Below are positions 2-49,819 of a stretch of 64,000 nt of DNA, one piece after another. The DNA is taken from positions 674 to 64,673 of the forward strand of contig DATDAQ010000069.1 of NCBI GenBank assembly GCA_036525295.1, given 5' to 3'. A model generated the notes under the pieces. It saw nothing but the letters and a program-made list of their open reading frames with translations. It had not been told where the DNA came from and did not search any database. Origin of the DNA: Solirubrobacterales bacterium. GTDB taxonomy: Bacteria; Actinomycetota; Thermoleophilia; Solirubrobacterales; 70-9. Position numbers and translations under genes: made by a program. The first letter of the stretch is position 1. Each line of letters starts with the position of its first letter.

Positions 2-2554
2 ATCGAAACGCCCTACCGCTACCGCCTTTCCGCCACCAATGAATTCGGCACCGACACCGGAGACCCCGAGCCCTTCACCCTCGAGCCCCCTGCGGTAATC
101 GTCAAGAGTGCGCTGCCGGTCTCCTACGACGAAGCCACGCTGAGGGGGGAAGTCGACCCCTCCGGCTCGCCGACCGAGTACCACTTCGAGTACCTGACCC
201 AGGCCGAATACGAAGAAAACGGCGGAACCTTTGCCGGCGCCCAGAGCACGCCGGTCACCGAGCTGCCGGCGGGAGAAGGCCTTGTCGTGGTCGAAGCGCC
301 GGTCACCGGCCTCGAAGAGGGGACCCTCTACCGCTTCAGGCTTCTCGCCGAGAACGCCGTGGCCGCGACGAGCGTGGAGGGCCCCGCCTTCGAAACGCTG
401 GCGCGCCCCCCGCTGCAGGAATGCGACAACGCCGAATACCGCACCGGCCTCTCCGCCTTCCTGCCCGACTGCCGCGCCTACGAGCTGGTCACCCCGGCCG
501 AGATGTTGTCGACGACGGGGGGATTGACGCGTCTCGGTTCGTTCAGTTCTGAAGCCGGCCATCGGTTCTTCAACAGCTGGTTCGTCGCGCCGCGCGGGGC
601 GCAAGCCGGCGAGAGCGTTGCCTACAGGGCGATGGTCCCCCGGGTGGACGGCCACCCCTTCCGCGCGCAGCGGGGGGAGGGCGACCACCCCAAAGGCGGC
701 TGGCAGAACGAGCCTTACGGGCTCACCTTCGCCCAAGGGGGGGGAGGCGACGGTGAACCCGGTGGGGTCTCCGCAGATCAGCGTTACGCCCTCTACGAGG
801 TCCTCGGACACGAAACTCCGACGGAGCAGTCCTTCCCTTCAGGCACCTACGTGCGTGTCCCCGCCGGCGAGGCGAGCCGCGCGTGTGCGCCAGAGCCCAT
901 AGCGACGTTCAAACTCTCAGACCCCGAAGGTAAGTTCGAGCTGGCCGGCTGCGGCGACCTCGGCACCGACCTCCATGCCGAGGGGCGCTTCCTGGCCGCT
1001 GCCGGCACACACGTAATCTTCACCTCCGACGAGGAACTGGACTCCGCGGCTCCGACGGCGGGCACCGAAGCGATCTACGATCGCAAAGTCGGCAGCGCCG
1101 CCAGCGAGGTCATCTCCGTCGATCCCGACGGCAACGCCTTCGGCGGCAGCGAAGAGCCGCGCTATCTGGCTGCTACCGAAGACGGCTCCGCTGTCGTCTT
1201 CAGCACGGGTGGCCTCGGCAAAACCCTCTATGTGCACCGTAAAGACAAAACGACACAGGTGACCGATGCTGCCAACACCTACGCGGGCATCTCCGAAGAC
1301 GGCAAACGCGTCTTCTTCATGGACAAACCCTTTTTCCCCAACGCGGAAGTCGACTCACCCCCTCCGGCGACGCTCTTCGCCTGTGACATCGAAGGGGGGA
1401 ATTGCGCCGGCCCCGACCAGGAACAGGAACCGATGGAGATCGCCACCGAGTCGAACTTCGTCAACGTCTCCGCCGACGGCTCCCACGTCTTCTTCACCTC
1501 CGAGGAGACCGAACCGTCCGAAGTCATGGAACTGGGCGAAAACGAAAACGGCGAAGAAGCCGAAGAAGGCGAGGCCAACCTCTATGCATGGGACGGCTCC
1601 AAAGCCAGCTTCGTCGCCATCCTGGACCCTCAAGACCTTGTCAACTTCCGCACGGGAGAAAGCCTCGAGGAGGAACAGCAGCTGGAAGACCTGCTGGCGT
1701 GGACCAGCACGATTCCAGGTCAGCGGGCGACCAGCGGAGGGTCGTATGAGGCCGGGCGCGCCTACTCGCCGGCGCGCAGCACGCCCGACGGCGAGGTCTT
1801 CGCCTTCCAGTCCCACGCCCAGCTCACCTCCTACGACAACGAAGGCAAGGGGGAGATCTACCGCTATGACCCCGCGGCCCCCGTGGGCTCTCAGCTGAGC
1901 TGCGTCTCCTGCGACCCGAGCGACGCTCCCCACGACTCCATTGCCGACACCATCTTCCAGTCTCTCTTCCAGGGGGTCACCAATTCCTCGACGATGATCC
2001 CCAACCTCACCGACGACGGGCGGCGGGTCTTCTTCGAGAGCCGCGAGGCACTTCTGCCTGAGGACGCCAACGCGGTGACCGACGTCTACGGGTGGAAAGC
2101 GCCAGGGACAGCCGGTCCCGGTGGCGACACCTGCGAGGATTCGCGTGGCTGCCTGGCGCTGATCTCGACCGGGCAGGGCGAACTGCCGAGCTTCCTCTAC
2201 GGCATGGGCGCCGACGGCGAAGACGTCTTCTTCGTCACGCAGGAGAAGCTGGTGGGAGCCGACCTGCTCGGCACCTTCTCGATCTACGATGCGCGGGTTC
2301 TCGGCGGCATCCCCGACCCGCCTGCGGCTGCTCCCTGCCAGGGCGACGCCTGTCAGGGACCGGCGTCGACCCCGCCGGACCTGCCGGCTCCTGCCTCGAC
2401 TGGCCCCGGCTCCGAAAGCCCACCGCAGGGTCGCCCCCCATGTGCGAAGGGCAAGCACCGGGTCAAAGGCCGTTGTGTGAAAAAGCACAGCAAGAAAAAG
2501 CAGCGCAAGCACTCGAAGAAACGAGCCAATCAGGACCGGGAGGCACGTCGATGA
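2..2554 (+). CDS. Large secreted repeat protein, 5'-truncated by the window edge. FN3-like repeats are followed by PD40/TolB-like beta-propeller repeats and a Cys-containing Lys-rich C-terminal tail.
   Basis: The reading frame is open from position 2 in the same frame as the listed 287..2554 ORF. It has FN3-like motifs (YRYRLSATNEFG, GTLYRFRLLAEN, TEYHFEY). It has recurring DGxxVxF propeller-blade motifs (DGSAVVFS, DGKRVFFMD, DGSHVFFTSEE, DGEVFAFQS, DGRRVFFESRE, GEDVFFVTQE). The tail reads CAKGKHRVKGRCVKKHSKKKQRKHSKKR. Confidence 0.75.
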   Translation: METPYRYRLSATNEFGTDTGDPEPFTLEPPAVIVKSALPVSYDEATLRGEVDPSGSPTEYHFEYLTQAEYEENGGTFAGAQSTPVTELPAGEGLVVVEAPVTGLEEGTLYRFRLLAENAVAATSVEGPAFETLARPPLQECDNAEYRTGLSAFLPDCRAYELVTPAEMLSTTGGLTRLGSFSSEAGHRFFNSWFVAPRGAQAGESVAYRAMVPRVDGHPFRAQRGEGDHPKGGWQNEPYGLTFAQGGGGDGEPGGVSADQRYALYEVLGHETPTEQSFPSGTYVRVPAGEASRACAPEPIATFKLSDPEGKFELAGCGDLGTDLHAEGRFLAAAGTHVIFTSDEELDSAAPTAGTEAIYDRKVGSAASEVISVDPDGNAFGGSEEPRYLAATEDGSAVVFSTGGLGKTLYVHRKDKTTQVTDAANTYAGISEDGKRVFFMDKPFFPNAEVDSPPPATLFACDIEGGNCAGPDQEQEPMEIATESNFVNVSADGSHVFFTSEETEPSEVMELGENENGEEAEEGEANLYAWDGSKASFVAILDPQDLVNFRTGESLEEEQQLEDLLAWTSTIPGQRATSGGSYEAGRAYSPARSTPDGEVFAFQSHAQLTSYDNEGKGEIYRYDPAAPVGSQLSCVSCDPSDAPHDSIADTIFQSLFQGVTNSSTMIPNLTDDGRRVFFESREALLPEDANAVTDVYGWKAPGTAGPGGDTCEDSRGCLALISTGQGELPSFLYGMGADGEDVFFVTQEKLVGADLLGTFSIYDARVLGGIPDPPAAAPCQGDACQGPASTPPDLPAPASTGPGSESPPQGRPPCAKGKHRVKGRCVKKHSKKKQRKHSKKRANQDREARR

Positions 2555-5544
2555 TCCGCCGCATGGGGTCCTACTTCGAGTTGTGGTGCCGCTTCGCAGG
2601 GCGGCGCGACCACAACTACTCGGGTTTCATGCTGACTCTGGCGCACTTCGCATGGCCGTACCACTTTGTAGGGCGGCGCGACCGCAATCACTGGGGTTAC
2701 CAGGGATCGGTGGCGCCCTACGCCGGGTGGAGCCACTTCGCTGGGCGGCGCCACCGCAAGCATTCGAAGAAGCAGCGGGCCAGCTACAGCCCCGATGAAG
2801 GTACGCCGACGATCCTCTGCATAGGCATAGCTGCCCTGCTGGGGTTTACGGCCCTCACCACCCTTGTCCTGGCCGCTCCCGCGGGAGCGATCGCGCCGCC
2901 CTGTCCCGACAAAGCCTTCAAAGCGAAATGCTTCGCGCTCGAGTCGATCGACGCCTCGCTCTCGACTACTCAAGCGGGTGCCCACCCCAACCTCACCCTC
3001 AGCTTCGATATTGCCCAGGATCCTGAAAGCGAGCCGGACGAGAAGGGCATGCACGACTCCTTCGTGCCGACCCGTAACGTACGCACCGACGTTCCTCCGG
3101 GACTGGTCGGGGACCCCAGCGTGCTCGGGCTGCCTCAGCAGTGCCGGGTGGTCGAACTGGCGGTGGGAGAATGCCCCAACGGCTCCCAGATCGGCACCGT
3201 CAGAGCTGACCTCTACGGCTCCGACGCCGTCTACATCCAACCCCTCTACATGATGGTGCCGCCGGGCGGGGATGTGATCGCGCGGGTGGGCTTCGTCGGC
3301 GGCACGATCGGGACGACCATCTACGCCGATGCGACGCTGCGCTCCGAGGGCGACTACGGTCTCAGCGTCGAAGTCGTCGACGCCCCGGTGGTCAGTGGCG
3401 TGCACCTGGTCGGAGCCGAAACGAAATTGTGGGGGGTGCCGGCGGCCAAAGAGCACGACACCGAACGCTGCACGCCTGGAGAGGTGTTTACGGACAACTG
3501 CACCGAATCGCCCTCGCGCCCCCCCGGTTCGCGCGAACTGCCCTTCCTTACCAACCCGACCCGCTGCGGGGTGCCACTGGAGATGAAAGTCGCCGCCTCC
3601 GGCTGGGCGGAACCGGAACGCTTCGACACCATGACAGCGAGCTTCCCCCAGATCACCGGCTGCAACAAACTGCCCTTTGGCCCGGGCCTCACGATCGAGC
3701 CGACCAACCGGCGTGCGGGGGCGCCGACCGGCCTCGACGTGACTGCCCGGATACCGGCCTCGGAGGGCGCGAAAGTGCTCGAACCCTCCCAGACGCGCGA
3801 TGTCCGCGTGACGCTGCCCGAGGGAATGACGGTCAATCCAGGCGCCGCCGACGGCCTTGATGTGTGCACCGAAGCGCAGGTTAAATTCGGCAAACGGGTG
3901 GCCGCCGAATGCCCCGACGCGGCCAAGCTGGCCGAGTTCGAGGTCGAGATCCCGGCACTGCCGCGGCGGATGAAAGGCGCGATCTATCTGCGTGAGCCCG
4001 AACCGGGCAACCTCTACCGCTTCTGGGCGGTCGCCGACGACCTTGGCGCGCACGTGAAGCTGCAGGGCCAGCTCAACCTGAACGAGCAGACCGGACAGAT
4101 GGAATCGACGATCCTCGACGTCCCCCAGGCACCGGTGCGCGAGATGAAGATCGTCTTCAAGTCGGGCTTTAGGGCGCCGCTGCTCAATCCGCCCACCTGT
4201 GGGGACTACGCCAGCAAATACGAATTCGTCCCCTGGTCGGGTGGCTTGCCGCAGATCTCCAATTCCCATATGACGATCGACGAAGGCTGCGAGGGCCTCG
4301 GGGGCTTCAGCCCGAAGATCTCCGCCGGCTCCACCGACGCCCAGGGTGGTGCCCACTCGCCCTTCTCCCTCACCATCGCACGCCAGGACGGCGAAGAGAA
4401 CCTCGCTGCCCTGGAGATCACCCTGCCCAGGGGCATGGCCGCCACCTTCGCCGGCATCCCGCGCTGCGAAGGCGTAGCGGCCGAAACGGGTCAGTGCTCG
4501 GCCGAGAGCCGCGTCGGCAGGGTTACCGCCTCCGTCGGCGCCGGCTCCAACCCGCTCTGGGTCCCCCAGCCTGGCAAGCGCCCGACTGCCGTCTACCTCG
4601 GCGGCCCCTACAAGGACGCCCCGCTCAGCGTGATCGCCGTCGTGCCCGCTCAGGCGGGTCCCTTCGACCTCGGCGACCAGGTGGTCCGCTCCGCCATTTA
4701 CGTCGACCCGGTCACCGCCCAGGCGACCGCCAAGTCGGATCCGCTGCCACAGATCCTCGAAGGCGTGCCAGTGCGCTACCGCACCACCAACGTCTTCCTG
4801 GACCGCCCGGGCTTCTCCCTCAACCCGACCTCCTGCGCGCGAAAGGCGACGACGTCCGCGATCCTCTCCGCTGGGGGAAAGATCGCCAATCCGTCCTCTC
4901 CCTACGCCGCGACCGACTGCGACAGGCTCGGCTTCAAGCCCCAGCTCGCCATGCGGCTATTCGGCGGCACCCATAGGGGATCCCACCCGAGGCTGCGCAC
5001 GATCCTCAAGATGCCCCCGGGCGGCGCCAACATCGGCAGCTTCTCGGTGGCCCTGCCGCACTCGGCATTCCTCGACCAGGCCCATATCCGCACCGTCTGC
5101 ACCCGAGTGCAGTTTGCCGCGGACCAATGCCCGGCCGGATCGATCTACGGAGCGGTGAAGGCCAGGACCCCCTTGTTCGACGAGACCCTGGAAGGTCAGA
5201 TCTACCTGCGCTCCTCAAACAACCCGCTACCCGACATGGTCGCCGTGGTCAAGGGCCCGCCCTCCCTGCCATTCGAGGTGCACTCGGCCGCACGGATCGA
5301 CTCGGTGAATGGCGGTATTCGCGCCACCTTCGATTCCTTCCCGGATGCCCCGATCACTGAAGCCGTCGCCAGCTTCCCGGGTGGCAGCAAGGGTCTGATC
5401 GTCAACTCGACCAACCTCTGCGCCAAAGTCAACAAGGTCACTGCCAAATTCACCGGGCACAACGGCAAGAAAGCCACGTTGAACCCGGTGCTGAAGGCTT
5501 CCTGCGGTGCGAAAGCAAAACGCCGCGCAGGACGTGGGCGCTAG
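2551..5544 (+). CDS. Large (about 1000 aa) membrane-anchored or secreted hypothetical protein. It has an N-terminal basic 3x24-aa repeat, one hydrophobic anchor or signal segment, and a large extracytoplasmic domain.
   Basis: The ATG at 2551 overlaps the upstream TGA (ATGA), suggesting translational coupling. A hydrophobic segment ILCIGIAALLGFTALTTLVLAAPAGA follows the basic stretch RRHRKHSKKQRA. It is a long uninterrupted ORF with normal GC3-rich codon usage. I recognise no family. The start is uncertain; a GTG near 2710 is an alternative. Confidence 0.7.
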   Translation: MIRRMGSYFELWCRFAGRRDHNYSGFMLTLAHFAWPYHFVGRRDRNHWGYQGSVAPYAGWSHFAGRRHRKHSKKQRASYSPDEGTPTILCIGIAALLGFTALTTLVLAAPAGAIAPPCPDKAFKAKCFALESIDASLSTTQAGAHPNLTLSFDIAQDPESEPDEKGMHDSFVPTRNVRTDVPPGLVGDPSVLGLPQQCRVVELAVGECPNGSQIGTVRADLYGSDAVYIQPLYMMVPPGGDVIARVGFVGGTIGTTIYADATLRSEGDYGLSVEVVDAPVVSGVHLVGAETKLWGVPAAKEHDTERCTPGEVFTDNCTESPSRPPGSRELPFLTNPTRCGVPLEMKVAASGWAEPERFDTMTASFPQITGCNKLPFGPGLTIEPTNRRAGAPTGLDVTARIPASEGAKVLEPSQTRDVRVTLPEGMTVNPGAADGLDVCTEAQVKFGKRVAAECPDAAKLAEFEVEIPALPRRMKGAIYLREPEPGNLYRFWAVADDLGAHVKLQGQLNLNEQTGQMESTILDVPQAPVREMKIVFKSGFRAPLLNPPTCGDYASKYEFVPWSGGLPQISNSHMTIDEGCEGLGGFSPKISAGSTDAQGGAHSPFSLTIARQDGEENLAALEITLPRGMAATFAGIPRCEGVAAETGQCSAESRVGRVTASVGAGSNPLWVPQPGKRPTAVYLGGPYKDAPLSVIAVVPAQAGPFDLGDQVVRSAIYVDPVTAQATAKSDPLPQILEGVPVRYRTTNVFLDRPGFSLNPTSCARKATTSAILSAGGKIANPSSPYAATDCDRLGFKPQLAMRLFGGTHRGSHPRLRTILKMPPGGANIGSFSVALPHSAFLDQAHIRTVCTRVQFAADQCPAGSIYGAVKARTPLFDETLEGQIYLRSSNNPLPDMVAVVKGPPSLPFEVHSAARIDSVNGGIRATFDSFPDAPITEAVASFPGGSKGLIVNSTNLCAKVNKVTAKFTGHNGKKATLNPVLKASCGAKAKRRAGRGR
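2599..2770 (+). repeat. Tandem triplication with an exact 72-nt (24-codon) period at the 5' end of the 2551..5544 CDS
   Basis: The motif GGGCGGCGC(G/C)ACC(A/G)CAA occurs at 2599, 2671 and 2743, spaced 72 and 72 nt apart. It encodes HF(A/V)GRR(D/H)(H/R)(N/K)(Y/H) three times. Confidence 0.8.
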
Positions 5545-5607: not shown

Positions 5608-5637
5608 GCACCGATCCGTGCGCACGCGGATCGGTGC
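5608..5637 (+). terminator. GC-rich hairpin (GCACCGATCCG / CGGATCGGTGC), copy 1 of 5. It may be a terminator or processing hairpin, or alternatively an operator.
   Basis: It is a perfect inverted repeat with an 8-9 nt loop, 63 nt after the stop of the 2551..5544 CDS. There is no U-tract. Confidence 0.45.
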
Positions 5638-5820
5638 GTGCGCCGACCCATCACCTCGCCAAGTGCAGGGGGAATCGGGCGCCCTCAGGCTGGGGCGACG
5701 AGTAAGGGCAACGAAGCTCGACATCGCGCCACCGGAGGCTCAGGATCGCCTCTGAGAGCCCGCCACCGGCGGGCATCGAGCAAACGATCCCGGCATGCTC
5801 GCGGGAAGGGAGAATCCATC

Positions 5821-6426
5821 ATGAGACTCATCAAGATGTTCGGCCTCGCCGCGCTCGCGGCAGTGGCGGCAATGGCAGTCGTCGGCGCGACGTCGGCCTC
5901 GGCGTCAACTACCACCCAGCTCTGTGGCGTCCACACCTCCTTAACCTGTGGGGACGGCAACGGATCGGCGCAAGTTCACCTGGTCACAGCTGCTGGTACG
6001 GTATTAAAACTGTTAGCAACGATAAGCGTCTTATGTTTAGGGGAGTTATGGCAGCTTGATACCTTAGGCTTAGGCAACCCACAGTCAGTTCACTCTTTAA
6101 CCAAAACAGTCACAGGTTGTGGCACGGGTTCCTCCCACAACAACTGCACGGTGACCGTTCAGGAACAGCCCTTATTCGACGTCTTAAAGACGGGGTTAGA
6201 CGAAGGGGTCGCGACGTCCACAAACGGCCGCTTACGTCTTCAGTGCGCCAACCTTGGTCTCGACTGCGTTTATGACCTAGAAGGTCTCGAACTCGCAGTT
6301 GGGGGCGGGCATTGGACTTTTGACGAAACCCCCACCAATGAATTAGGCGGCAAATTCTTCTGCCCTGACGAAGGGCTCCTGGACGCGTTATTTGAAACAT
6401 TAGGGAACGTGTTCGTACTTCAGTAG
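5821..6426 (+). CDS. Secreted 8-Cys paralog A (201 aa, Sec signal peptide), unknown family
   Basis: The start was chosen by homology with the other four copies (MRL[IVT]K[MT]F..AALA..AAMA.VGA.SASA) and by a GGGAG SD 8 nt upstream. The longer 5638 start is not supported. I counted 16 in-frame TTA codons manually. Confidence 0.9.
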   Translation: MRLIKMFGLAALAAVAAMAVVGATSASASTTTQLCGVHTSLTCGDGNGSAQVHLVTAAGTVLKLLATISVLCLGELWQLDTLGLGNPQSVHSLTKTVTGCGTGSSHNNCTVTVQEQPLFDVLKTGLDEGVATSTNGRLRLQCANLGLDCVYDLEGLELAVGGGHWTFDETPTNELGGKFFCPDEGLLDALFETLGNVFVLQ

Positions 6427-6451
6427 AAACCAGGACTTGAGTGCACAGCAA

Positions 6452-6483
6452 GCACCGATCTGTGCACACACGCGGATCGGTGC
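6452..6483 (+). terminator. Conserved hairpin, copy 2 (slightly degenerate, GCACCGATC / GATCGGTGC)
   Basis: An inverted repeat 25 nt after the paralog A stop. Confidence 0.45.
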
Positions 6484-6584
6484 GTGCGTGAATAGGACAT
6501 CCTGTCAAGTTGCGGGCAAGCTCCCCACTCGGCGGGCATTGAGCAAGCGACCCCGGCGAACGCTCGCCGGAAGGGAGAATCACC

Positions 6585-7193
6585 ATGAGACTCATCAAGA
6601 CGTTCGGCCTCGCCGCGCTCGCGGCGTTGGCGGCAATGGCATTTGTCGGCGCGGCGTCGGTATCGGCCTCGACCAGCACGCAGCTCTGCACCATCCATAC
6701 GGGCTTAACGTGTGGGGCTGGGAGCGCAGCCACTTCGGTTCACATGACCCTAGCAGTAGGAACTGTTGGCAAACTATTAGGCTCGATCAGCGTCTTATGC
6801 TTAGGCGCTTTAGTGGAAGCCGAAGCCTTAGGGTTAGGCAAACCCCAGTCGGTGCACACCACGTCCATGTCGTTCTCAGGCTGCGGTACCGGCTCCGGGC
6901 ACAGCAACTGCACGGTGACCGTACTGGAAGAGCCTTTAGCTAATCTCTTAAAAACTGGGTTAGATGAAGGGATCCTTACTCCTACAAATGGTCGCATTTT
7001 GCTCCATTGCTCCAATCTTGGCATATACTGCACGTATGACCTCGAAGGTCTTGAATTGGAAGTCGGCGACCAACACCTAACCATGGAAGAAACCCCCGCC
7101 AAAGAATTAGGCGGCAAATTCTTCTGCCCCGACGAAGGGCTCCTAGACGGGTTATTGAAAACCACGTTTGCGAATACATACGTACTTCAGTAG
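6585..7193 (+). CDS. Secreted 8-Cys paralog B (202 aa)
   Basis: It has signal peptide MRLIKTFGLAALAALAAMAFVGAASVSAS and the conserved Cys pattern and motifs LKTGLDEG, ELGGKFFCPDEG. An SD GGGAG lies upstream. I counted about 12 TTA codons. Confidence 0.9.
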   Translation: MRLIKTFGLAALAALAAMAFVGAASVSASTSTQLCTIHTGLTCGAGSAATSVHMTLAVGTVGKLLGSISVLCLGALVEAEALGLGKPQSVHTTSMSFSGCGTGSGHSNCTVTVLEEPLANLLKTGLDEGILTPTNGRILLHCSNLGIYCTYDLEGLELEVGDQHLTMEETPAKELGGKFFCPDEGLLDGLLKTTFANTYVLQ

Positions 7194-7213
7194 TCGTCTG
7201 AATACTGAGTTCA

Positions 7214-7245
7214 CGCACCGATCCGTGCACACGCGGATCGGTGCG
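7214..7245 (+). terminator. Conserved hairpin, copy 3 (CGCACCGATCCG-8nt-CGGATCGGTGCG)
   Basis: A perfect 12-bp stem 20 nt after the paralog B stop. Confidence 0.45.
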
Positions 7246-7428
7246 TGCGCTGTCTGGTCATCTCGCCAGGTGCAGGGAATCGTATGCCCCTCTGGATCGG
7301 GGTGATGGATGGAGATAGCAGAGCTCGACATCGCAGCGCCGGAGCCTCAGGATCGCCTGTGAGAGTCCGCCACTCGGCGGGCATCTAGCAAACGATCCCG
7401 GCAACCTTCGCCGGAAGGGAGATCCACC

Positions 7429-8034
7429 ATGAGACTCGTCAAGACGTTCGCCTCCGCGGCGCTCGCGGTGTTGGCGGCAATGGCATTCGTCGGCGCCACC
7501 TCAGCGTCGGCCTCGACTACCACCCAGCTCTGTGGTATCCACAACTCCTTAACCTGTGGAGACGGCAACGGATCGGCGCAGGTTCATCTGGTCCTTGCTG
7601 CTGGCACGGTATTACAACTATTAGCAACGATAAACGTCTTATGTTTAGGGGAGTTATGGGAGCTTGATACCTTAGGCTTAGGCAATCCACAGTCAGTTCA
7701 CACTTTAACCCACACAGTCTCGGGTTGTGGCACAGGGCCCTCCCACGACAACTGCACAGTGACCGTTCAGGAGCAGTCTTTATTCAACGTCTTAAAGACG
7801 GGGTTAGATGAAGGGGTCGCGACGTCCACGAACGGCCGCTTACGTCTCCAGTGCGCCAACCTTGGTCTCGACTGCGTGTATGACCTAGAAGGTCTCGAAG
7901 CCTCAGTTGGGAACGGGCATTGGACTTTTGAAGAAACCCCCACCAATGAATTAGGCGGCAAATTCTTCTGCCCCGACGAAGGTTTCGTCCACGCGTTACT
8001 GGAAACATTAGGGGACGTGTACGTCCTTCAGTAG
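7429..8034 (+). CDS. Secreted 8-Cys paralog C (201 aa), closest to paralog A
   Basis: Same architecture as the others and very similar to A along its whole length. I counted 16 TTA codons. Confidence 0.9.
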   Translation: MRLVKTFASAALAVLAAMAFVGATSASASTTTQLCGIHNSLTCGDGNGSAQVHLVLAAGTVLQLLATINVLCLGELWELDTLGLGNPQSVHTLTHTVSGCGTGPSHDNCTVTVQEQSLFNVLKTGLDEGVATSTNGRLRLQCANLGLDCVYDLEGLEASVGNGHWTFEETPTNELGGKFFCPDEGFVHALLETLGDVYVLQ

Positions 8035-8057
8035 AAACGGGCCTTGAGTGCACAGCA

Positions 8058-8089
8058 CGCACCGATCCGTGCACACGCGGATCGGTGCG
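8058..8089 (+). terminator. Conserved hairpin, copy 4
   Basis: A perfect 12-bp stem 23 nt after the paralog C stop. Confidence 0.45.
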
Positions 8090-8272
8090 TGCGCTGTCTG
8101 GTCATCTCGCCAGGTGCAGGGGGACTCGAGCCCTTCTGGATCGGGGTAATGAATGGAGATAGCAGAGCTCGACATCGCAGCGCCGGAGCCTCAGGATCGC
8201 CTGTGAGAGCCCGCCACTCGGCGGGCATCTAGCAAACGATCCCGGCAACGCTCGCCGGAAGGGAGATTCACC

Positions 8273-8878
8273 ATGAGACTCACCAAGATGTTCGGCCTCG
8301 CCGCGCTCGCGGCGGTGGCGGCAATGGCATTCGTCGGCGCGACGTCGGCGTCGGCCTCCGCTAACACGCAGCTCTGCACCGTCCATACAGGCTTAACATG
8401 TGGGGCTGGGAACGCAGCCACTTCGGTTCACTATGTTCTGACAGCCGGCACGGTACTGACAGTGTTAGCTGAAATTGATGTTTTATGTTTAGGCTATTTA
8501 CTGGAAAAAACCGCATTAGGATTAGGGAATCCCCAGTCGGTTCACACTACAACCCAGACGTTCTCGGGCTGCGGCACCAACGCCACGCACACCAACGCCA
8601 CGGTGACCGTTCAGGAACAGCCTTTAGCCAACCTCTTAAAGACGGGGTTAGACGAAGGAGTCTTAACAGCCACAAACGGACGCCTAAGAATTGTGGTTTC
8701 CAGCCTCGGCCTTGACTGCGTAATCGATACCGCAGGCCTGGAACTCGCAGTCAGCGAAGGGATGCTCACCGCGAATGAAACTCCCCTCACGGAATTAGGT
8801 AGCAAATTCTTTTGCCCCAACGAAGGAGTGCTGGATGCGTTACTGGAAGCATTAGGGAGCGTTTACGTTCTCGGATAA
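8273..8878 (+). CDS. Secreted paralog D (201 aa), the 6-Cys variant
   Basis: Same architecture as the others. Two of the eight conserved Cys are replaced together (NC->NA and LQC->IVV). I counted about 14 TTA codons. Confidence 0.9.
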   Translation: MRLTKMFGLAALAAVAAMAFVGATSASASANTQLCTVHTGLTCGAGNAATSVHYVLTAGTVLTVLAEIDVLCLGYLLEKTALGLGNPQSVHTTTQTFSGCGTNATHTNATVTVQEQPLANLLKTGLDEGVLTATNGRLRIVVSSLGLDCVIDTAGLELAVSEGMLTANETPLTELGSKFFCPNEGVLDALLEALGSVYVLG

Positions 8879-8898
8879 AAGCTTTAAGGCAGCCACCA

Positions 8899-8930
8899 CG
8901 CACCGATCCGTGCACACGCGGATCGGTGCG
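8899..8930 (+). terminator. Conserved hairpin, copy 5
   Basis: A perfect 12-bp stem 20 nt after the paralog D stop. Confidence 0.45.
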
Positions 8931-9116
8931 TGCGCTGTCTGGTCATCTCGCCAGGTGCAGGGGGAATCGGGCGCCCCTCAGACTGGGGCGATGGGTAGGG
9001 GTAGCAAAGCTCGACATCGCATCGGCGGAGGCTCAGGATCGCCTGTGAGAAGCCCGCCGCTCGGCGGGCACTGAGCAAGCGACCCCGGCGAACGCTCGCC
9101 GGAAGGGAGATTCACC

Positions 9117-9719
9117 ATGAGACTCATCAAGACGTTCGGCCTCGCCGCGCTCGCGGCGGTGGCGGCAATGGCATTCGTCGGCGCGACATCGGCGTCGGCC
9201 ACCAGCACGCAGGTCTGCACCTCCCACACGGGCTTAACCTGTGGGGCTGGACAAGGAGCGGGCACGATCCATGCGGTTCTCGCAGCCGGCACGGTCTTAA
9301 AGCTCTTAGCCCCAATAAATGTCTTATGTTTAGGAGAGTTATGGGAATCCACTGCCTTAGGGTTAGGTAATCCACAGTCGATTCATTTCACAAGCAAAAC
9401 ATCCACTGGTTGTGGCACCGGATCGGCGCACAGCAACTGTACGTTAACTACACAAGAACAACCATTAGCCAATCTATTAAAGACAGGGTTAGATGAAGGC
9501 ATCTTGACATTAACAAGTGGCCGTTTACGTCTACAGTGCCCCAATATCGGCATCGACTGCGTGTATGACGCTGAAGGCATCGAACTCGCGGGCGGAGGCG
9601 GGCACTGGACCATGGAAGAAACCCCCACCAATGAATTAGGCGGCAAATTCTTCTGCCCCGACGAAGGACTCATCGACTCGTTAATGGAAACGTTAGGAGA
9701 GGCGCACATCCTCGGGTAG
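9117..9719 (+). CDS. Secreted 8-Cys paralog E (200 aa), third subtype
   Basis: Same architecture as the others. I counted about 17 TTA codons. Confidence 0.9.
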   Translation: MRLIKTFGLAALAAVAAMAFVGATSASATSTQVCTSHTGLTCGAGQGAGTIHAVLAAGTVLKLLAPINVLCLGELWESTALGLGNPQSIHFTSKTSTGCGTGSAHSNCTLTTQEQPLANLLKTGLDEGILTLTSGRLRLQCPNIGIDCVYDAEGIELAGGGGHWTMEETPTNELGGKFFCPDEGLIDSLMETLGEAHILG

Positions 9720-9734
9720 GTCCAAGGTGGAACT

Positions 9735-9760
9735 GCACCCCGCCAAGTTCGCCGGGGTGC
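9735..9760 (+). terminator. Distinct GC hairpin closing the array (GCACCCCG-10nt-CGGGGTGC)
   Basis: An 8-bp perfect stem 15 nt after the paralog E stop. There is no U-tract. Confidence 0.45.
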
Positions 9761-15337: not shown

Positions 15338-15883
15338 CTACGAGCAGCCGCGCAAGCCGTACGCCGCGGTCAGCTGGGGCGTTTCCTTGAAGCTCCCTTG
15401 GGCTTCGAGGAAGGCCTGGTTGAAGGCTTCGGGGTCTTCAGCTGCTTCGTTGATCCCCTTCTGCACGGCTTCCAGGTAGGCGGCGATCTCCTGCTCGTCA
15501 CCGCTGGGCGCGCCGAGCGCGCTGATTTCGTCGATCTGCGTTTGGTAGATCTTCGCGAAATCGTCTTCGTAGAATTCGATTTCGAAGGGAGTTTCCGTGG
15601 GTTTCCGCGGGTTGTCGCGGGCTTCTTCGAAGATTGCCTTCAGCTGCGTTTCGAACTTTTCCGCGGCCTTCCTGCAGATCGGTTCCACCCTCTTGATGAA
15701 CGCCGCTTTCGAGAGCGATCCGGTATCGACGGTGATTTCGGTGCTGCCGCCGGAGGAGCCGGTTGCCGAGTCGTCGCTGTCGCCGCATCCCGCCGCGAAA
15801 AGGAGGGCAAAGGCGGTTGCCGCGATGACGAAGAGGCCTCGTATGGTCAAGAAATTCCCCCGCATTCGGGCGCAGCATAGCAT
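15338..15883 (-). CDS. Hypothetical lipoprotein
   Basis: Lipobox LFAAGCG follows a hydrophobic N-terminus. The start could be 15883 or 15865. No family recognised. Confidence 0.6.
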   Translation of the reverse strand: MLCCARMRGNFLTIRGLFVIAATAFALLFAAGCGDSDDSATGSSGGSTEITVDTGSLSKAAFIKRVEPICRKAAEKFETQLKAIFEEARDNPRKPTETPFEIEFYEDDFAKIYQTQIDEISALGAPSGDEQEIAAYLEAVQKGINEAAEDPEAFNQAFLEAQGSFKETPQLTAAYGLRGCS

Positions 15884-36740: not shown

Positions 36741-37733
36741 TTGCGTCGCTTTCTCATCCCCATCGTTTCCATTGCCATGGTCGCTCTCGCGTTGGCGATT
36801 TCCGCCTGCGGAGGCGGCAGCAGTGGCGCACAGGACATCGTTGACGAAGCGACGCTCAAGGGGATCGAAAGCGGCAAGCTTGACCTCTCGCTTGGAATTG
36901 ACACGGAGGGCGGCGATGGCGGACAGGTCGACGTCGACCTGTCCGGCCCATTCGAGGTCGAAGAGGGGGAAAGGGCGCCCGAACTCGATCTGACCGCGGC
37001 CGTGAAGGGCACCGTGGGCGGTGAGAAGGTGGATTTCGAAGGCGGAATCGTCTTGACCGGCGCCAACGACGCCTACGTCGACTTCGAAGGGACCGACTAC
37101 AAGGTCGATGCGACCACCTACGGCTACGGACAGTCGATCCTAGGAGAATCGGAAGAAGTCAGCGCCTGTCAGGAAGCCGTGAGCGAGAGGCAGCTGAGCG
37201 AACTCATCGAAGATCCCGCCGAAGAAGGAACCGTCGACGTGGGGGGGACCAGCACGACGAAGGTCAGCGGCGACGTCGATGCCGAAGCCGCGCTCGACGC
37301 GCTGCACGAAATGAACGAAGACGCGCTCTGCAGCGAACAGCTGAAAGCGGTTCCGGGATTCGGAGCGCAACTGGCCCAGATCGAGGAATCGAGCGTTAAG
37401 GCGGAGGACACGATCAAGGATGCGCATCTCGTGCTCTATGTCGGCGACGACCACATCGTGCGCCGGCTGCAGGCGCAGGTCACGGTCAAGCCGCCGGAGG
37501 GATCGGCCCCCCCGGGCGCGGAAAGCGTCAGTTTCGACATCGACCTGACTCTCACCAAGGTCAACGAGCCCCAGACGATCTCCGCGCCCAAGAGCTCGAA
37601 GCCGCTGAACGCGCTCTTCGTCAAGCTCCGCGTCAATCCGGTCGAACTGCTCGGCATAGTTCAGGGCGGTATCGGTGGGGCCGGGCTGATCAACTTCCTG
37701 GAACGGATCGCAGCCGCAGGGGGCACGCAGTAG
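36741..37733 (+). CDS. Hypothetical acidic lipoprotein
   Basis: Lipobox LAISACGG with a TTG start. No family recognised. Confidence 0.6.
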   Translation: MRRFLIPIVSIAMVALALAISACGGGSSGAQDIVDEATLKGIESGKLDLSLGIDTEGGDGGQVDVDLSGPFEVEEGERAPELDLTAAVKGTVGGEKVDFEGGIVLTGANDAYVDFEGTDYKVDATTYGYGQSILGESEEVSACQEAVSERQLSELIEDPAEEGTVDVGGTSTTKVSGDVDAEAALDALHEMNEDALCSEQLKAVPGFGAQLAQIEESSVKAEDTIKDAHLVLYVGDDHIVRRLQAQVTVKPPEGSAPPGAESVSFDIDLTLTKVNEPQTISAPKSSKPLNALFVKLRVNPVELLGIVQGGIGGAGLINFLERIAAAGGTQ

Positions 37734-40518: not shown

Positions 40519-41859
40519 TCAAGGCAGAAATACTGACCGAGGCCGGGCGCGCCAACGGAAGGTGGCTGGGGTCGGGTCGGCCAGTCCCTGCGGGTCGACT
40601 GCCCGGACGCGGAAGACGTGCTCCCCCAGCCCCACCTTCCTCCGATACGGGGACGCGCATGCTCGGTAGGGCCGGCGATCCAGCTTGCACTCGAAGTGGG
40701 AGCCGACGTCGCTAGAGCCGAAGGCGAAATTGGTCCGGCGGAAACCGGTGAATACAGGGCGCGGCAGCGGCGGGAGTACCAGCTTCGTGACCGGCGCGAG
40801 GTTGGCCCAGGGAGCGGCAAAGGGGTCGAACTCGTCGGCGCCGATGTCGGCCGCGGCGCCCATCGTCCGCGGCTGCTCGTCGACGTCGAGGCCGCCGCTG
40901 GCACCGTCGACGGCGCCCCTGTCGACGGTGGGCGAGCCAGGCAGCTGGTGCAGGTTGTCGCGGGCGAGCAACGGGGTCGCCCTGATATTGGCGTTGGTGC
41001 CCGGCGCGGTGACCAAGGCCCTGCCTCCCGCCCGCGCCTCGAATTCGACCGTTGCGTAGCTCGAGCTCCGAAGGTCGATGTCCACCCTGGCGCCGCGGCC
41101 TTTGTTGAGCGGCCAGCCTTTCGCGATTACATCCTTCGCCTCGCCCGCGATCAAGGCCCCGGCCACGTCGATGCTCACCGTCAAGCCTCGCTTGAAGGCA
41201 CTGAAGATGAACTCCATCCCGACCGAGCCTGGACCGGTTGCGACCAGGGTGCTATTGCGGATCACGCCGCTTAGCGTTCCCTTAGTGGCGGTATTGGTGC
41301 CGATAGCCGGGCCCCCGCCGGAGGCGATGCAGGCGCTGTTGCGGACAGTTCCCTCGTGGAAGTAGCAGGTGGGTTCAACGGTGATCGTTGAGCGCGCGAT
41401 CACCCCGTCGATCGTGCCTCCGGAAATCGCGATCGCCCCGGCGGTATCCATCAGGTTGCGGATTTCCACATCGGCGACTTCGGCTTCCGCCGGAACGTAG
41501 AAGGCGCTGTCGGCGAACGAGTCCGTCGGCATGACGACGACCGGCCGCGGCTTGCCCGGTTCGCCGCGCAGAGTGACCCCCTCGGGAAGGTGCACGGGCG
41601 GGACGTATCCGAACTCACCTTCTTCCCTCGCGTAGTAGGTACCGGGGGCGAGTTCGATCACGTCGCCGGCTGCGATCGTCGTCCGCGGGGCGTTGTCGTC
41701 GGCCGCCTTGTACACGGAGCAGGGACGCGACGGGTTGGCGCAGGGATCCTTGCCGGTCCCGCCCGGGGCCGCGTACCGGGTCGCCGCCGTCGCGCCGGAG
41801 GCGAGCAGCAGCGCCAGCGCCGCCGGCAGCGCCAGCGCCCACCCAGCTCGGCTCAACAT
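40519..41859 (-). CDS. Secreted right-handed beta-helix protein with a C-terminal 2-Cys Ig-like module
   Basis: Signal peptide MLSRAGWALALPAALALLLASGATAA. Repeated (I/V)RNS..(I/V)A.G motifs. The C-terminus is shared with the S8 protease. An alternative start lies at 41898. Confidence 0.7.
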   Translation of the reverse strand: MLSRAGWALALPAALALLLASGATAATRYAAPGGTGKDPCANPSRPCSVYKAADDNAPRTTIAAGDVIELAPGTYYAREEGEFGYVPPVHLPEGVTLRGEPGKPRPVVVMPTDSFADSAFYVPAEAEVADVEIRNLMDTAGAIAISGGTIDGVIARSTITVEPTCYFHEGTVRNSACIASGGGPAIGTNTATKGTLSGVIRNSTLVATGPGSVGMEFIFSAFKRGLTVSIDVAGALIAGEAKDVIAKGWPLNKGRGARVDIDLRSSSYATVEFEARAGGRALVTAPGTNANIRATPLLARDNLHQLPGSPTVDRGAVDGASGGLDVDEQPRTMGAAADIGADEFDPFAAPWANLAPVTKLVLPPLPRPVFTGFRRTNFAFGSSDVGSHFECKLDRRPYRACASPYRRKVGLGEHVFRVRAVDPQGLADPTPATFRWRARPRSVFLP

Positions 41860-42923
41860 GAGATCGGCCCGGCCTCGCGGCCCGGCCCGGGACGCCAAGC
41901 CACGTCGTAGAGGGTCAGCGCCGGATCGGTGAAGACACGGGTCAGACAGGTTCCGTCGGCGTTGATGGCCATTGCCCTGTTGCCGGCTTCCGGTTCCAGG
42001 CCTCCGGTCGCGTCGGCCGGTGGGTTCCGGGCGAAGGCGAGCCGACTTCCGGATGGGTCCCAGCTCGGGAAGGAGATGTAGCCGTTCCTGCGCAGCACAC
42101 GCCTGGCGTGACTGCCGTCCGCTCGGGCCACCCAGAGCTCGGTGACCGGCCGGTCCGGCTTTGGCAGCTGGAATCGTCGGGTCTTGTCGCGCACGAATGC
42201 CAGCTTGCTGCCGTCCGGCGAAAAGGTCGGTTCCGAGGCGTTGCGGGCGAGTCGGGCGATGCGGTGGCTGCGCAGGTCAATCGCAATGACACCATCGACA
42301 ACGCGGTAGCCGAACGACTCGGCGGCGAGAGTGGAGCCATCGGCCGAAAACGAGCTGGGCTCGAAAAAGGCGGCCTGCCGCCAGCGGGTCAGCCGCTTGA
42401 CCGAGCCGTCTCCGACGCCTAGCTTCCAGATCGAGCTCTTGAAGAGGTAGTTCTCCCTGCCCGGCAGCACCTTGACCAGCTTCACCCGCTGGAAGACGAC
42501 GAAGCTTCCGTCCGGCGCCAGGACCGGCTCGCCCGCGTTGAGAAACGCGCTCGGGTACACCTGAGGGGCGTCGCCGCCGAGCGTCGCCAGCCCCACAACC
42601 GACCATCCGGTGCCGAAGGGCCCATCGGCGGTGCTCTCGACCCCACTTGCCGAGAACGCAAATCCGTTCCCGTCCCCGGCCCACGAAAGGCCCTCGCCGA
42701 TCGCCCCTCCCGAACCGCGGAGCAGCGGCTGGGGATCCTCGCCCGCCGGGCCCGTCGTGATCACTTCCGAGAACTCGTCCTCCGGCCCCGGGCCATCTCC
42801 CCGCAGTGAGATGGCCAGTCTGGGACCCTCCGGCGTCGCTGCGGCAGCGGGAAGGGCCGTCCCCAGACAGACGAGGAACGCAGCAAGTACCAGAACGATC
42901 ACGCGGCGGTTCACCGCCCGCAC
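41853..42923 (-). CDS. Secreted TolB-like PD40 beta-propeller protein
   Basis: It has a signal peptide and the repeats APDGSFVVF, SADGSTLAA, SPDGSKLAFVRD and DPSGSRLAFARN. Confidence 0.75.
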   Translation of the reverse strand: MRAVNRRVIVLVLAAFLVCLGTALPAAAATPEGPRLAISLRGDGPGPEDEFSEVITTGPAGEDPQPLLRGSGGAIGEGLSWAGDGNGFAFSASGVESTADGPFGTGWSVVGLATLGGDAPQVYPSAFLNAGEPVLAPDGSFVVFQRVKLVKVLPGRENYLFKSSIWKLGVGDGSVKRLTRWRQAAFFEPSSFSADGSTLAAESFGYRVVDGVIAIDLRSHRIARLARNASEPTFSPDGSKLAFVRDKTRRFQLPKPDRPVTELWVARADGSHARRVLRRNGYISFPSWDPSGSRLAFARNPPADATGGLEPEAGNRAMAINADGTCLTRVFTDPALTLYDVAWRPGPGREAGPISC

Positions 42924-47575: not shown

Positions 47576-49819
47576 GTGACTGCGATGCTGCGACGGCGAG
47601 TATGCCCCGGCTTGGTGGCCCGGATTTCGATTGCTGTCTTGGCATCGGCATCCGTCCTGGCTCCGCATGCCATCGCGGTGCCGAGCGGCGGGTCCCTGGC
47701 CTTCGTCCAGGTTGGCGGGGCGGGGACCTACGTCCCGGGTGAGGCAATCGTGCGCTTCGAGAGAGGCACGTCGCACGCGGATCGCCGCGATGCACGCCGC
47801 TCGGCCGACGTCGAGCTCGGCGATACCCTCGGCATACCGCGCGTTCAGCTGCTCGAGGTCCACGGATCCGTGAGTGCCGCTGTCCGGCGTCTGGAAGGCC
47901 AGCCGGGGGTCGTCTACGCCCAGCCGAACTACCGCTACGAGGTGCTGGCGGTCCCCGAGCCCGACGACAGCTTCTTCGAAGATCTCTGGGGCCTTTCGGA
48001 TCCCGCCCTGCCGGATCCTGGCGTGGGCGCACTCGAGGCCTGGGAGCATGGCAAGGGGAGTGGCGAGGTGATCGCCGTCGTCGACACGGGGGTCGATCTG
48101 ACACACCCCGACATCGCCCCCAACCTGTGGACCAACCCGAGCCCGGATCCGAGTTCCGAAGACCTGCACGGATATGACTTCGTCGACGACGACGGCGATC
48201 CCGACGACTACAACTTCCACGGGACGCATGTGGCGGGCACGGCGGCGGCTGCCTCCGGCAACGCCATGGGGACGGCCGGAGTCGCTCCCGAGGCGGAGAT
48301 CATGGCCGTCCGGGTTCTGGACGGCGACGGCAGCGGTTCGACCGACGAGATCGCCGACGGCATCGCCTACGCGGCGGAGCACGGGGCGGGCGTCATCAAC
48401 CTCAGCCTCGGCGGCCCCGCAGGCGAAGACGAGGCGATGTCGGACGCGGTCGACCTGGCCGCCGAAGAAGGGGCCGTCGTCGTGGCGGCCGCCGGCAACG
48501 ATGGGGCGAACAACGACGTCGAGCCGACCACGCCGTGCACGCTTCCCCAGCCGAGCCTGATCTGCGTCGCGGCGCTAGGCCGGGGCGGCGGTCTGGCGAG
48601 CTTCTCGAACTACGGCGCTCAGTCCGTCGACATCGCCGCGCCGGGGACCGGCATCCTCAGCGCCAAGCCGGACTATGGCGCTCCCCTGTTCAGCAATGGC
48701 TTCGAGGCGGGGACGACCGAAGCCTGGGACACCTTTGCGGAAAACGGGGGGCTTCCGTGGGGCCTGAGCGCTTCGGCCGCAAGCGGCACCCAGTCGGCGA
48801 CGGACAGCCCGGGAGGCGACTACGGCCAAGCGACGGGCACGAGCGACGCCGTCTCCGAACTATTTACCGTCGGCGCCGTGGACCTGACCACCGAGCGCGG
48901 CTGCCGAATCCACTTCCGCACGAAGTACGAGTTGGAGGACACCTTCGACTACTTCCTCGCGGGCGCTTTCGACGAAGATGGGTCCGCCGACTTCGTCGAA
49001 CTCACCGGCACCTCGCCAGCGTACCCCAGCAGCTTCGAACGCGAAGAGGTCTCGATCTCGGATCTGGACGACGAGAACGACGTTCACCCTGCCTTCGCCG
49101 TGCTCTCCGACGAATCGATCGAGCTCGACGGTGCTTACGTCGACGACGTGCGGCTCATTTGCCGCGACGAGACCTACGTCAACCAGATCACGAGCGTCAG
49201 CCAGTACGACCAGCCCGCCGCCGGCAACTATGTCGCGTTCCAGGGCACCTCGATGGCGGCCCCGCACGTCGCGGGAGTGGCGGCACTCGTCCGCGCGGCC
49301 GCCCCCGGTGCGAGTGCCACAGAGGTCGTCGACGCGATCCTCGATGGGGCCTCGGCCCTCCCGAGCGTCGTTCCTTCGAAGCCGATCGCCACCTACGGCA
49401 TCGCCGATGCATGCCAGGCGATCGCCGTGGCGAGGGCGGAAGACTTCGCCGAAGAGTGTCCGGGGAGCAGCGAAAACGTCATTCCCCCGCCGCCGCCACC
49501 GGCGGCACCGGCCACCCCTGCGTCGTCAACGACGGTTGTCGACCAGCTGGCGCCTCGCACCTTCTTCCGGCAGCATCCTCTCCGGATCCTGCGCACGCGC
49601 CACGGCAAGGCCAGGGCCGTGTTCCGCTTCGGCGCCGACGAGTCCGGCGTCTCCTTCGTCTGCCGGATCGACGGCGGCTTGTTCCAAGTCTGCCCCCAGC
49701 GGCTGGTGAGCCGGTTTGCGATCGGGTTGCACACCGTCCGGGTCTACGCTCGCGACCCCGCGGGGAACGCCGATCGGACCCCAGCCGTCTACCGCTTCCG
49801 GGTCAAGCGGATCGGCTAG
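47576..49819 (+). CDS. Secreted subtilisin-like S8 serine protease with C-terminal extension domains
   Basis: Catalytic triad contexts [15 protein letters not shown] and [11 protein letters not shown], plus a signal peptide. The start could be 47576 (GTG) or 47585 (ATG). Confidence 0.9.

Follow-up and report, generated by a model that had tools for sequence, protein, structure and literature searches.

Invariant TTA leucine codons in the mature domains of a secreted protein family of Solirubrobacterales and their possible role in translation

Why should genes in a GC-rich genome be loaded with a leucine codon that the other genes hardly use, and why should this codon stand at the same positions from copy to copy? 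The question is raised by a tandem array of five paralogous genes for small secreted proteins, located in a 64,000-nucleotide stretch of DNA (the window) from an uncultured Solirubrobacterales bacterium that is represented by a metagenome-assembled genome (MAG). An earlier note on this DNA had counted 16, 12, 16, 14 and 17 TTA codons in the five genes, about 75 altogether, and had argued for selection on the codon or the DNA motif itself. Our recount gives exactly these numbers, with all 75 codons in frame and a total of 156 leucine codons in the five genes. We find that the mature domain has about 14 fixed positions at which strong purifying selection maintains TTA and no other leucine codon; the codons GAA and AAA are maintained likewise.

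The TTA codons are confined to the mature parts of the genes. As the note had stated, the signal-peptide codons lack TTA and the leaders are GC-rich: codons 1-30 contain no TTA, their leucines being encoded by CTC (14) or TTG (2), and the GC content of the leaders is 0.61-0.68. Between positions 5800 and 9720, 75 of the 79 TTA trinucleotides are in frame, and the whole 64-kb window contains 130. In the other 39 open reading frames (ORFs) of the window with high GC content at third codon positions (GC3), which comprise 16,201 codons and 1,608 leucine codons, TTA occurs twice, both times 5' of the likely true start. At this background rate, the probability of finding at least 75 TTA among 156 leucine codons is about 1e-169. 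When related loci are included, the background amounts to 140 non-family ORFs (about 65,000 codons), and these contain no genuine TTA, since all nine matches lie 5' of true starts. The frequency of TTA elsewhere is therefore not comparable to that in the array but effectively zero.

The mature parts have a GC content of 0.52 and a GC3 of 0.55-0.59, the signal-peptide parts have 0.67-0.70 and 0.80-0.87, and the rest of the window has 0.69 and about 0.9, respectively. The switch of the mature parts to A/T-ending codons is thus present in the composition as described earlier, but it is not uniform: the shift of four-fold boxes toward A/T is no more than 3-4 fold, with NNC remaining more frequent than NNT (N, any nucleotide). 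From background to family, TTA rises from 0.1% to 53% of leucine codons, GAA from 19% to 92% and AAA from 19% to 75%, all far beyond the general AT shift, whereas CAA (10% to 25%) does not exceed it. The other rare leucine codons, CTA and TTG, account for 1.7% and 4.3% of leucine in the background.

To compare codons between copies, we used 63 distinct full-length members of the family collected from the window and 42 loci. Each copy contains 11-21 TTA codons (mean 14.9). In 14 leucine columns of the alignment (41, 65, 71, 73, 76, 82, 84, 93, 118, 122, 126, 175, 190 and 194), we counted 788 TTA, one CTN and neither TTG nor CTA, with TTA present in 51-100% of the copies depending on the column. 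Relatives with CTG or CTC at the same leucine positions are therefore essentially lacking. The shared sites that had been pointed out in the five window copies (G-L-T-C-G, V-L-C-L-G, L-G-L-G, L-K-T-G-L-D-E-G and E-L-G-G-K) are all recovered at the same aligned leucines. Some 15 further leucine columns consist of CTN codons and show the usual drift to CTA and TTG and, now and then, to TTA. Codons 1-40 are free of TTA in all copies, and the densest run of TTA is found at codons 62-93. The pattern does not depend on a low GC3, as copies with a mature GC3 of 0.72-0.78 retain 11-14 TTA, and distant members (about 95-165 bits against the family profile) have 5-24.

The degree of conservation can be expressed in two ways. 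Among pairs of copies with the same residue in a column, the codon differs in 50-63% of cases for G, A, T, V and P, in 31-44% for C, D, H, N and Y, and in 49-61% for CTN-encoded leucine, but in 5.9% for TTA-encoded leucine. When synonymous changes are counted by parsimony on a neighbour-joining tree, TTA-leucine columns have 0.1 changes per column as against 12 for CTN-leucine columns; the corresponding values are 7-10 for two-fold C/T boxes, 8.5 for glutamine, 13-18 for four-fold boxes, 1.5 for GAA and 1.0 for AAA. AAA makes up about 91% of the lysine codons of the family outside one column. At column 123 (6187-6189 in paralog 1), the invariant lysine that follows TTA122 is encoded by AAG in 49 of 50 copies. 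Lysine elsewhere in the mature part is mostly AAA (45 of 45 at column 178; AAG is 4 of 13 at column 57). AAG at column 123 may avoid a TTAAAAA run, which would be slippery or homopolymeric, and it shows that the codon lock is position-specific in both directions.

That the lock reflects selection follows from the direction of mutation: changes of TTA to TTG or CTA are transitions that the GC pressure of the genome would favour, and yet they are absent. This absence also bears on the simplest explanation without selection, in which the array is a relic from a low-GC donor that was spread by recent duplication or gene conversion. The tandem arrangement of the paralogs and the lower GC content of the island are what such a relic would leave. 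However, the copies are 46-85% identical to each other with other synonymous sites near saturation, and the pattern recurs in many genomes and throughout a superfamily of about 1,000 clusters (50% identity). Codon-pair differences, column counts and tree-based synonymous counts together effectively refute the relic reading. Gene conversion was considered separately and rejected because the flanking synonymous sites differ. The earlier view that foreign origin alone does not account for the pattern is borne out, since other Solirubrobacterales genomes and metagenomes keep the TTA columns while neighbouring synonymous sites have diverged heavily.

A second question is whether selection acts on the codon or on the DNA. 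In the family, 753 TTA are in frame, whereas out-of-frame TTA numbers 35 and 5, as compared with 67 ± 6 and 14 ± 3 in synonymous shuffles, although there are 629 and 89 potential host sites, respectively. Because out-of-frame TTA is depleted, the unit of selection is the codon and not a DNA motif; of the two possibilities raised in the note, the former stands and the latter is not supported. Lsr2-type proteins of other Actinomycetota favour AT-rich DNA, and the mature parts have 52% GC, compared with 69% in the remainder of the window. The note had pointed to Lsr2-type silencers; in the corresponding explanation, the AT-shifted DNA would be maintained as a binding platform for an Lsr2- or H-NS-like silencer, so that the array is conditionally transcribed. 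We consider this highly improbable as the selected cause: selection is specific to frame and codon with TTA kept in frame only, CTA and TTG never substitute for it, four-fold sites drift freely, copies with high GC3 keep their TTA, and the locus is ancient and syntenic rather than xenogeneic. Incidental binding of a nucleoid protein to the 52% GC patch may nevertheless occur. Two other ideas were discarded. Hidden stop codons in the +1 frame or on the antisense strand would be provided equally by CTA, which never occurs, and the avoidance of internal motifs resembling Shine-Dalgarno (SD) sequences would hold for all genes.

Selection that is specific to frame and codon implicates decoding. Moreover, since CTA and TTG never replace TTA, it is the identity of the codon and not its rarity that is conserved, which points to a specific transfer RNA (tRNA) reading UUA. 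TTA is not used in ordinary genes, and the mature domain would therefore rely for its translation on this one tRNA, tRNA-Leu(UAA). The explanation that we favour, and to which we give about an even chance, is that TTA is read as leucine and that synthesis of the mature domain is tied to a single UUA-reading tRNA, which acts as a gate or throttle similar to bldA of Streptomyces. Here we infer that tRNA-Leu(UAA) is present, that its supply is limiting and that the advantage lies in regulation. With no TTA in ordinary genes, the tRNA would be nearly private to this family. Each mRNA contains 11-21 UUA codons, which are densest at codons 62-93, and a genome has several arrays; output would thus steeply follow the level of charged tRNA-Leu(UAA), and growth state or the supply of leucine might switch the gate. 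There are precedents for both parts: in Streptomyces, genes that contain TTA are under the control of a single tRNA-Leu(UAA) (PMC4255298, PMC2000904), and translation of genes rich in rare codons follows the charging of rare tRNAs (PMC6127279).

Several points weigh against this explanation. No tRNA-Leu was found in tRNA scans of the window and 49 loci, in which the sole tRNA is a tRNA-Pro(TGG). A simple gate requires one or a few TTA and need not spare the signal peptide. In Streptomyces, a gene usually has one TTA, which is often 5'-proximal, and the genes are regulators or belong to secondary metabolism; here there are 11-21 TTA in about 200 codons, with about 14 locked columns and none in the first 40 codons. 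In addition, a gate based on TTA does not predict that GAA and AAA are locked together with it, and an extra assumption is required for the roughly 15 leucine columns that stay CTN and resist TTA; an accuracy constraint at core sites may be the reason. Nor does it predict that other signal-peptide proteins are also enriched in GAA and AAA, and a general pacing linked to export fits both findings at least as well. Finally, a review infers that bldA's role in development may not reach further than Streptomycineae (PMC4255298).

The codon usage of other exported proteins is relevant here. ORFs with a signal peptide or lipobox use GAA at 49% as against 15% in other ORFs and AAA at 36% as against 13%, while CAA is the same (8.8% and 8.5%) and GC3 differs little (0.87 and 0.90); the median GAA fraction per ORF is 0.40 and 0.09, respectively (p = 4.5e-8). 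Examples are included in Table 1. In the large ORF immediately upstream of the array, as listed from position 2092, the GAA/GAG and AAA/AAG counts are 31/24 and 19/23. These figures suggest that the secretome of these Solirubrobacterales has a codon dialect of its own. TTA, unlike GAA and AAA, is unique to the present superfamily, and the adjacent large secreted proteins have none. Note that the neighbouring orthologs (the 907-amino-acid protein, the lipoprotein, metH and the GSDH-family gene) are 74-96% identical at the amino acid level, which is too close to judge whether GAA is locked in them. We found no account in the literature of a GAA/AAA bias of the secretome or of a TTA-loaded family in Thermoleophilia, and the secretome-wide preference for GAA and AAA, in which CAA has no share, may be of interest in its own right.

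The main rival explanation is that export or folding is paced constitutively. According to this explanation, UUA, GAA and AAA are decoded slowly, by U34 tRNAs of low abundance, and they retard elongation of the mature domain after the signal peptide emerges, so that the eight-cysteine beta domain is targeted to and threaded through Sec co-translationally, or folded in order, and cytoplasmic misfolding is avoided. The onset of the lock after the signal peptide in all copies is in agreement with it, as are the locking of GAA and AAA beside TTA and the generality of the Glu/Lys-but-not-Gln bias among signal-peptide proteins; furthermore, the densest run would be translated when the signal peptide is just out of the ribosome tunnel. 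Position-conserved clusters of rare codons are also known and have been tied to folding (PMC5438181). However, the known clusters conserve rarity (PMC5438181), and here the rare codons CTA and TTG never take the place of TTA. Other exported proteins, including the adjacent ones of 900-1600 amino acids, manage without any TTA, and the TTA codons reach the C-terminus (columns 175, 190 and 194), past any targeting window. We therefore hold pacing to be possible but rather doubtful.

A further alternative is that TTA does not mean leucine. It might be read as a different or modified residue by a tRNA(UAA) that was captured after GC pressure had driven TTA out of ordinary genes, in which case the TTA and CTN columns would hold different residues and the family would have a private extra codon. 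Codon capture does occur in Actinomycetota, where ACA has been reassigned from Thr to Asp (bioRxiv 10.64898/2026.05.03.722492), and the absence of TTA from ordinary genes is its precondition. The leucine columns fall into two classes, those with TTA throughout and those with CTN throughout. In the second domain of two-domain members, the invariant TTA columns 41, 71, 73 and 122 are occupied by E, K, S, Q, A or G; T is found at columns 93 and 118. Overall, 72% of the non-leucine residues in TTA columns are polar, compared with 35% in CTN columns (p = 3.5e-9 per residue), although this contrast is weak when counted per column (5 of 9 and 3 of 13). A blind inference of codon meaning from column-mates ranks leucine only seventh for TTA. 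This inference recovers 35 of 45 control codons but is not diagnostic here, because GAA (rank 5) and AAA (rank 7), which likewise lack synonymous column-mates, fail too.

On the other hand, CTN-encoded leucine is the third commonest column-mate of TTA (13%). TTA makes up about 8% in the strictly hydrophobic leucine columns 131, 187, 191 and 64, where Ser and Thr never occur, and columns 122, 126 and 175 have CTT, CTG or CTC leucine in distant members or in the second domain. Reassignment to a standard residue would also leave unexplained why that residue's own codons are absent from the TTA columns. TTA thus shares some columns with CTN-encoded leucine and hydrophobic residues and others with polar residues; on balance the family alignment favours leucine, and decoding as anything else appears very unlikely. 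No conserved housekeeping gene in the window or the related loci contains TTA, and hence there is no material for a Codetta-style test.

The features of the array are listed in Table 1. An SD motif of the type given there for paralog 2 precedes all five paralogs. On the 5' side, the array is preceded by a protein of about 1,620 amino acids with beta-propeller repeats and by the secreted protein of about 907 amino acids, which is invariably 5' of the array in related genomes, contains no TTA and, in a direct comparison, has no homology to the TTA-loaded family. On the 3' side there are a convergent metH, an aldehyde dehydrogenase gene, a lipoprotein gene and a GSDH-family gene. The order of large secreted proteins, array and metH recurs in six other contigs, and the locus is therefore old and syntenic, not a recent xenogeneic island.

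Table 1. Coordinates of the array and of other features in the window and in related loci (L numbers)
Feature	Position	Strand	Remarks
Large secreted protein	2824-5544	+	about 905-907 amino acids from likely start; exact start uncertain
Conserved palindrome CACCGATCCG-N8-CGGATCGGTG	5609-5636	+	65 nt past stop of upstream large gene, before paralog 1
Paralog 1	5821-6426	+	201 amino acids; 16 in-frame TTA; mature all-beta domain with 8 Cys; Sec-type signal peptide (codons 1-29) without TTA
Imperfect copy of CACCGATCCG-N8-CGGATCGGTG hairpin	6451-6484	+	about 25 nt past paralog 1 stop
Shine-Dalgarno GGAAGGGAG	6569-6577	+	7 nt 5' of paralog 2 ATG
Paralog 2	6585-7193	+	202 amino acids; 12 TTA, every one in mature part
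17-bp perfect stem, 4-nt loop	7211-7248	+	core palindrome 23 nt past paralog 2 stop; coordinates set by analogy with folded copy
Paralog 3	7429-8034	+	201 amino acids; 16 TTA
17-bp perfect stem, 4-nt loop	8055-8092	+	core palindrome 26 nt past paralog 3 stop
Paralog 4	8273-8878	+	201 amino acids; 14 TTA; without Cys109/Cys142 pair
Conserved hairpin copy	8896-8933	+	core palindrome 23 nt past paralog 4 stop
Paralog 5	9117-9719	+	200 amino acids; 17 TTA
Different GC hairpin GCACCCCG-N10-CGGGGTGC	9735-9760	+	3' of last paralog; read from sequence; probably marks array end
Signal-peptide/lipoprotein-like ORF (example)	2092-5544
Signal-peptide/lipoprotein-like ORF (example)	15338-15883
Signal-peptide/lipoprotein-like ORF (example)	36741-37733
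Signal-peptide/lipoprotein-like ORF (example)	40519-41898
Signal-peptide/lipoprotein-like ORF (example)	47576-49819
Signal-peptide/lipoprotein-like ORF (example)	L043 7798-8757
Signal-peptide/lipoprotein-like ORF (example)	L045 2287-3300
Signal-peptide/lipoprotein-like ORF (example)	L045 5949-8087

Family genes are followed, 23-29 nt past the stop codon, by a GC-rich hairpin that reaches 17 bp and lacks a U-tract. It is conserved between genomes, with copies in other loci (L037 20197-20224; L038 7501-7528, 9064-9091 and 9915-9942). Folding of the intergenic RNA at 8035-8275 gives a strongly structured molecule (z = -5.3). The conserved hairpin might serve as a terminator, as a processing site or as a stabiliser, and for the 3' stem-loop of the type at 7211-7248 a terminator or stabiliser is likely. 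A further conserved hairpin, GCCCGCC-ACTC-GGCGGGC, is located in the 5' leaders. An Rfam scan of the whole window gave no match, and a scan with promoter and terminator consensus sequences gave no signal above shuffles.

Several other features of these loci are worth recording. Codon 2 is the rare arginine codon AGA in all five paralogs (5824-5826, 6588-6590, 7432-7434, 8276-8278 and 9120-9122) and in all 46 arginines of this column among 50 copies, while AGA is 1.5% of arginine codons in background genes; this resembles the known effect of an A-rich second codon on initiation in secretory proteins (PMC2034453). The tRNA-Pro(TGG) gene mentioned above (L033 1165-1240) is directly 5' of a family gene (1397-2141). 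CCG is absent from the 23 proline codons in the mature parts of the five window paralogs. A gene for a 330-amino-acid HxlR-type transcription regulator, a candidate transcriptional regulator of the array, is directly 5' of family arrays in three loci (L037 8069-9061, L006 190-1213 and L016 247-1261). In two metagenome contigs, a small IS1595-like Zn-ribbon ORF is situated between two family genes (L041 1465-2300 and L042 1927-2313).

The products of about 200 amino acids consist of a Sec-type signal peptide (MRLIKxFGLAALAAVAAMAFVGATSASA) and a mature domain of about 170 amino acids with eight conserved cysteines. Pfam and NCBIfam searches with the paralogs and the neighbouring large protein gave no match, and a PDB profile search gave nothing at E <= 10. 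An AlphaFold2 model built from 108 homologs is confident, with a predicted local distance difference test score (pLDDT) of 85.5 that exceeds 90 across the mature part, and is all-beta with long strands. The best E-value of a Foldseek search of this model against PDB is 0.05, which is not significant; the loosest resemblance is to 8-stranded up-and-down beta-barrels, with a target-normalised TM-score of about 0.5. Homologs are annotated solely as hypothetical proteins in Solirubrobacterales MAGs. At E <= 1e-3 the superfamily comprises 991 clusters at 50% identity, and it includes two- and three-domain members and fusions to proteins of 1,000-1,600 amino acids. The five genes therefore belong to a large superfamily of Solirubrobacterales that lacks annotation and whose members are small all-beta proteins, secreted and disulfide-bonded.

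Two-domain members are found at L003 (5673-6957 and 6606-7842), L008, L015, L019, L026, L030, L045 (11091-12242) and L047 (784-2043). In the nine resolved copies (L003, L008, L015, L019, L026 and L030), identity between the two domains is only about 30%. The second domain contains 7-9 TTA in total, among them those of columns 76, 82, 126, 190 and 194, while other TTA columns of the first domain correspond to Glu (GAA), Lys (AAA), Thr or Tyr.

In this family, TTA is held more tightly by evolution than most amino acids. If mature-domain synthesis is indeed tied to tRNA-Leu(UAA), the family would represent a natural, nearly orthogonal channel between one codon and one tRNA that serves one large secreted superfamily, and control by a rare codon and its tRNA of the bldA kind would reach the deep class Thermoleophilia in a much more extreme and more position-specific form. 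It would then offer an exceptionally clear case in which to study why rare tRNAs persist and how multiple rare codons shape expression, export and folding, one in which recoding experiments and changes of tRNA dosage would read out clearly. It would also call for caution in heterologous expression and in the annotation of these abundant soil bacteria.

The closest known system is the bldA regulon of Streptomyces. Both occur in high-GC Actinomycetota in which TTA is the rarest codon, confined to accessory genes and absent from housekeeping genes, and in both a single tRNA would decode TTA, which is our inference in the present case. In some Streptomyces targets, such as adpA, TTA is conserved by selection (PMC4255298). 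Besides the number and placement of TTA discussed above, the present case differs in that the genes encode structural secreted proteins, that it belongs to Thermoleophilia, where control of the bldA type is undescribed, and that GAA and AAA are also locked. Conserved rare-codon clusters (Chaney et al. 2017, PMC5438181) share with the family the occurrence of rare codons at homologous domain positions across homologs, implying translational selection. In those clusters, however, the codon is free as long as it is rare; here one codon is invariant (788 of 789), the density is far higher, and the rest of the genome does without the codon.

Codon-biased translation controlled by the supply or modification of tRNAs has mycobacterial examples. 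Transcripts that are tunable by tRNA modification would resemble the family in that the translation of a gene set enriched in particular codons depends on the state of the tRNA that reads them; AGA codons in Pseudomonas protegens (PMC4836200) and non-optimal codons in starvation (PMC5066624) are cases in point. The enrichment here is extreme, locked in position and restricted to one superfamily. Finally, the reassignment of ACA from Thr to Asp in Acidimicrobiales (bioRxiv 10.64898/2026.05.03.722492) likewise concerns an A-ending codon that was driven from ordinary genes in high-GC Actinomycetota. There, however, ACA returns across conserved proteins at Asp sites together with an altered tRNA, whereas TTA is found in one family only.

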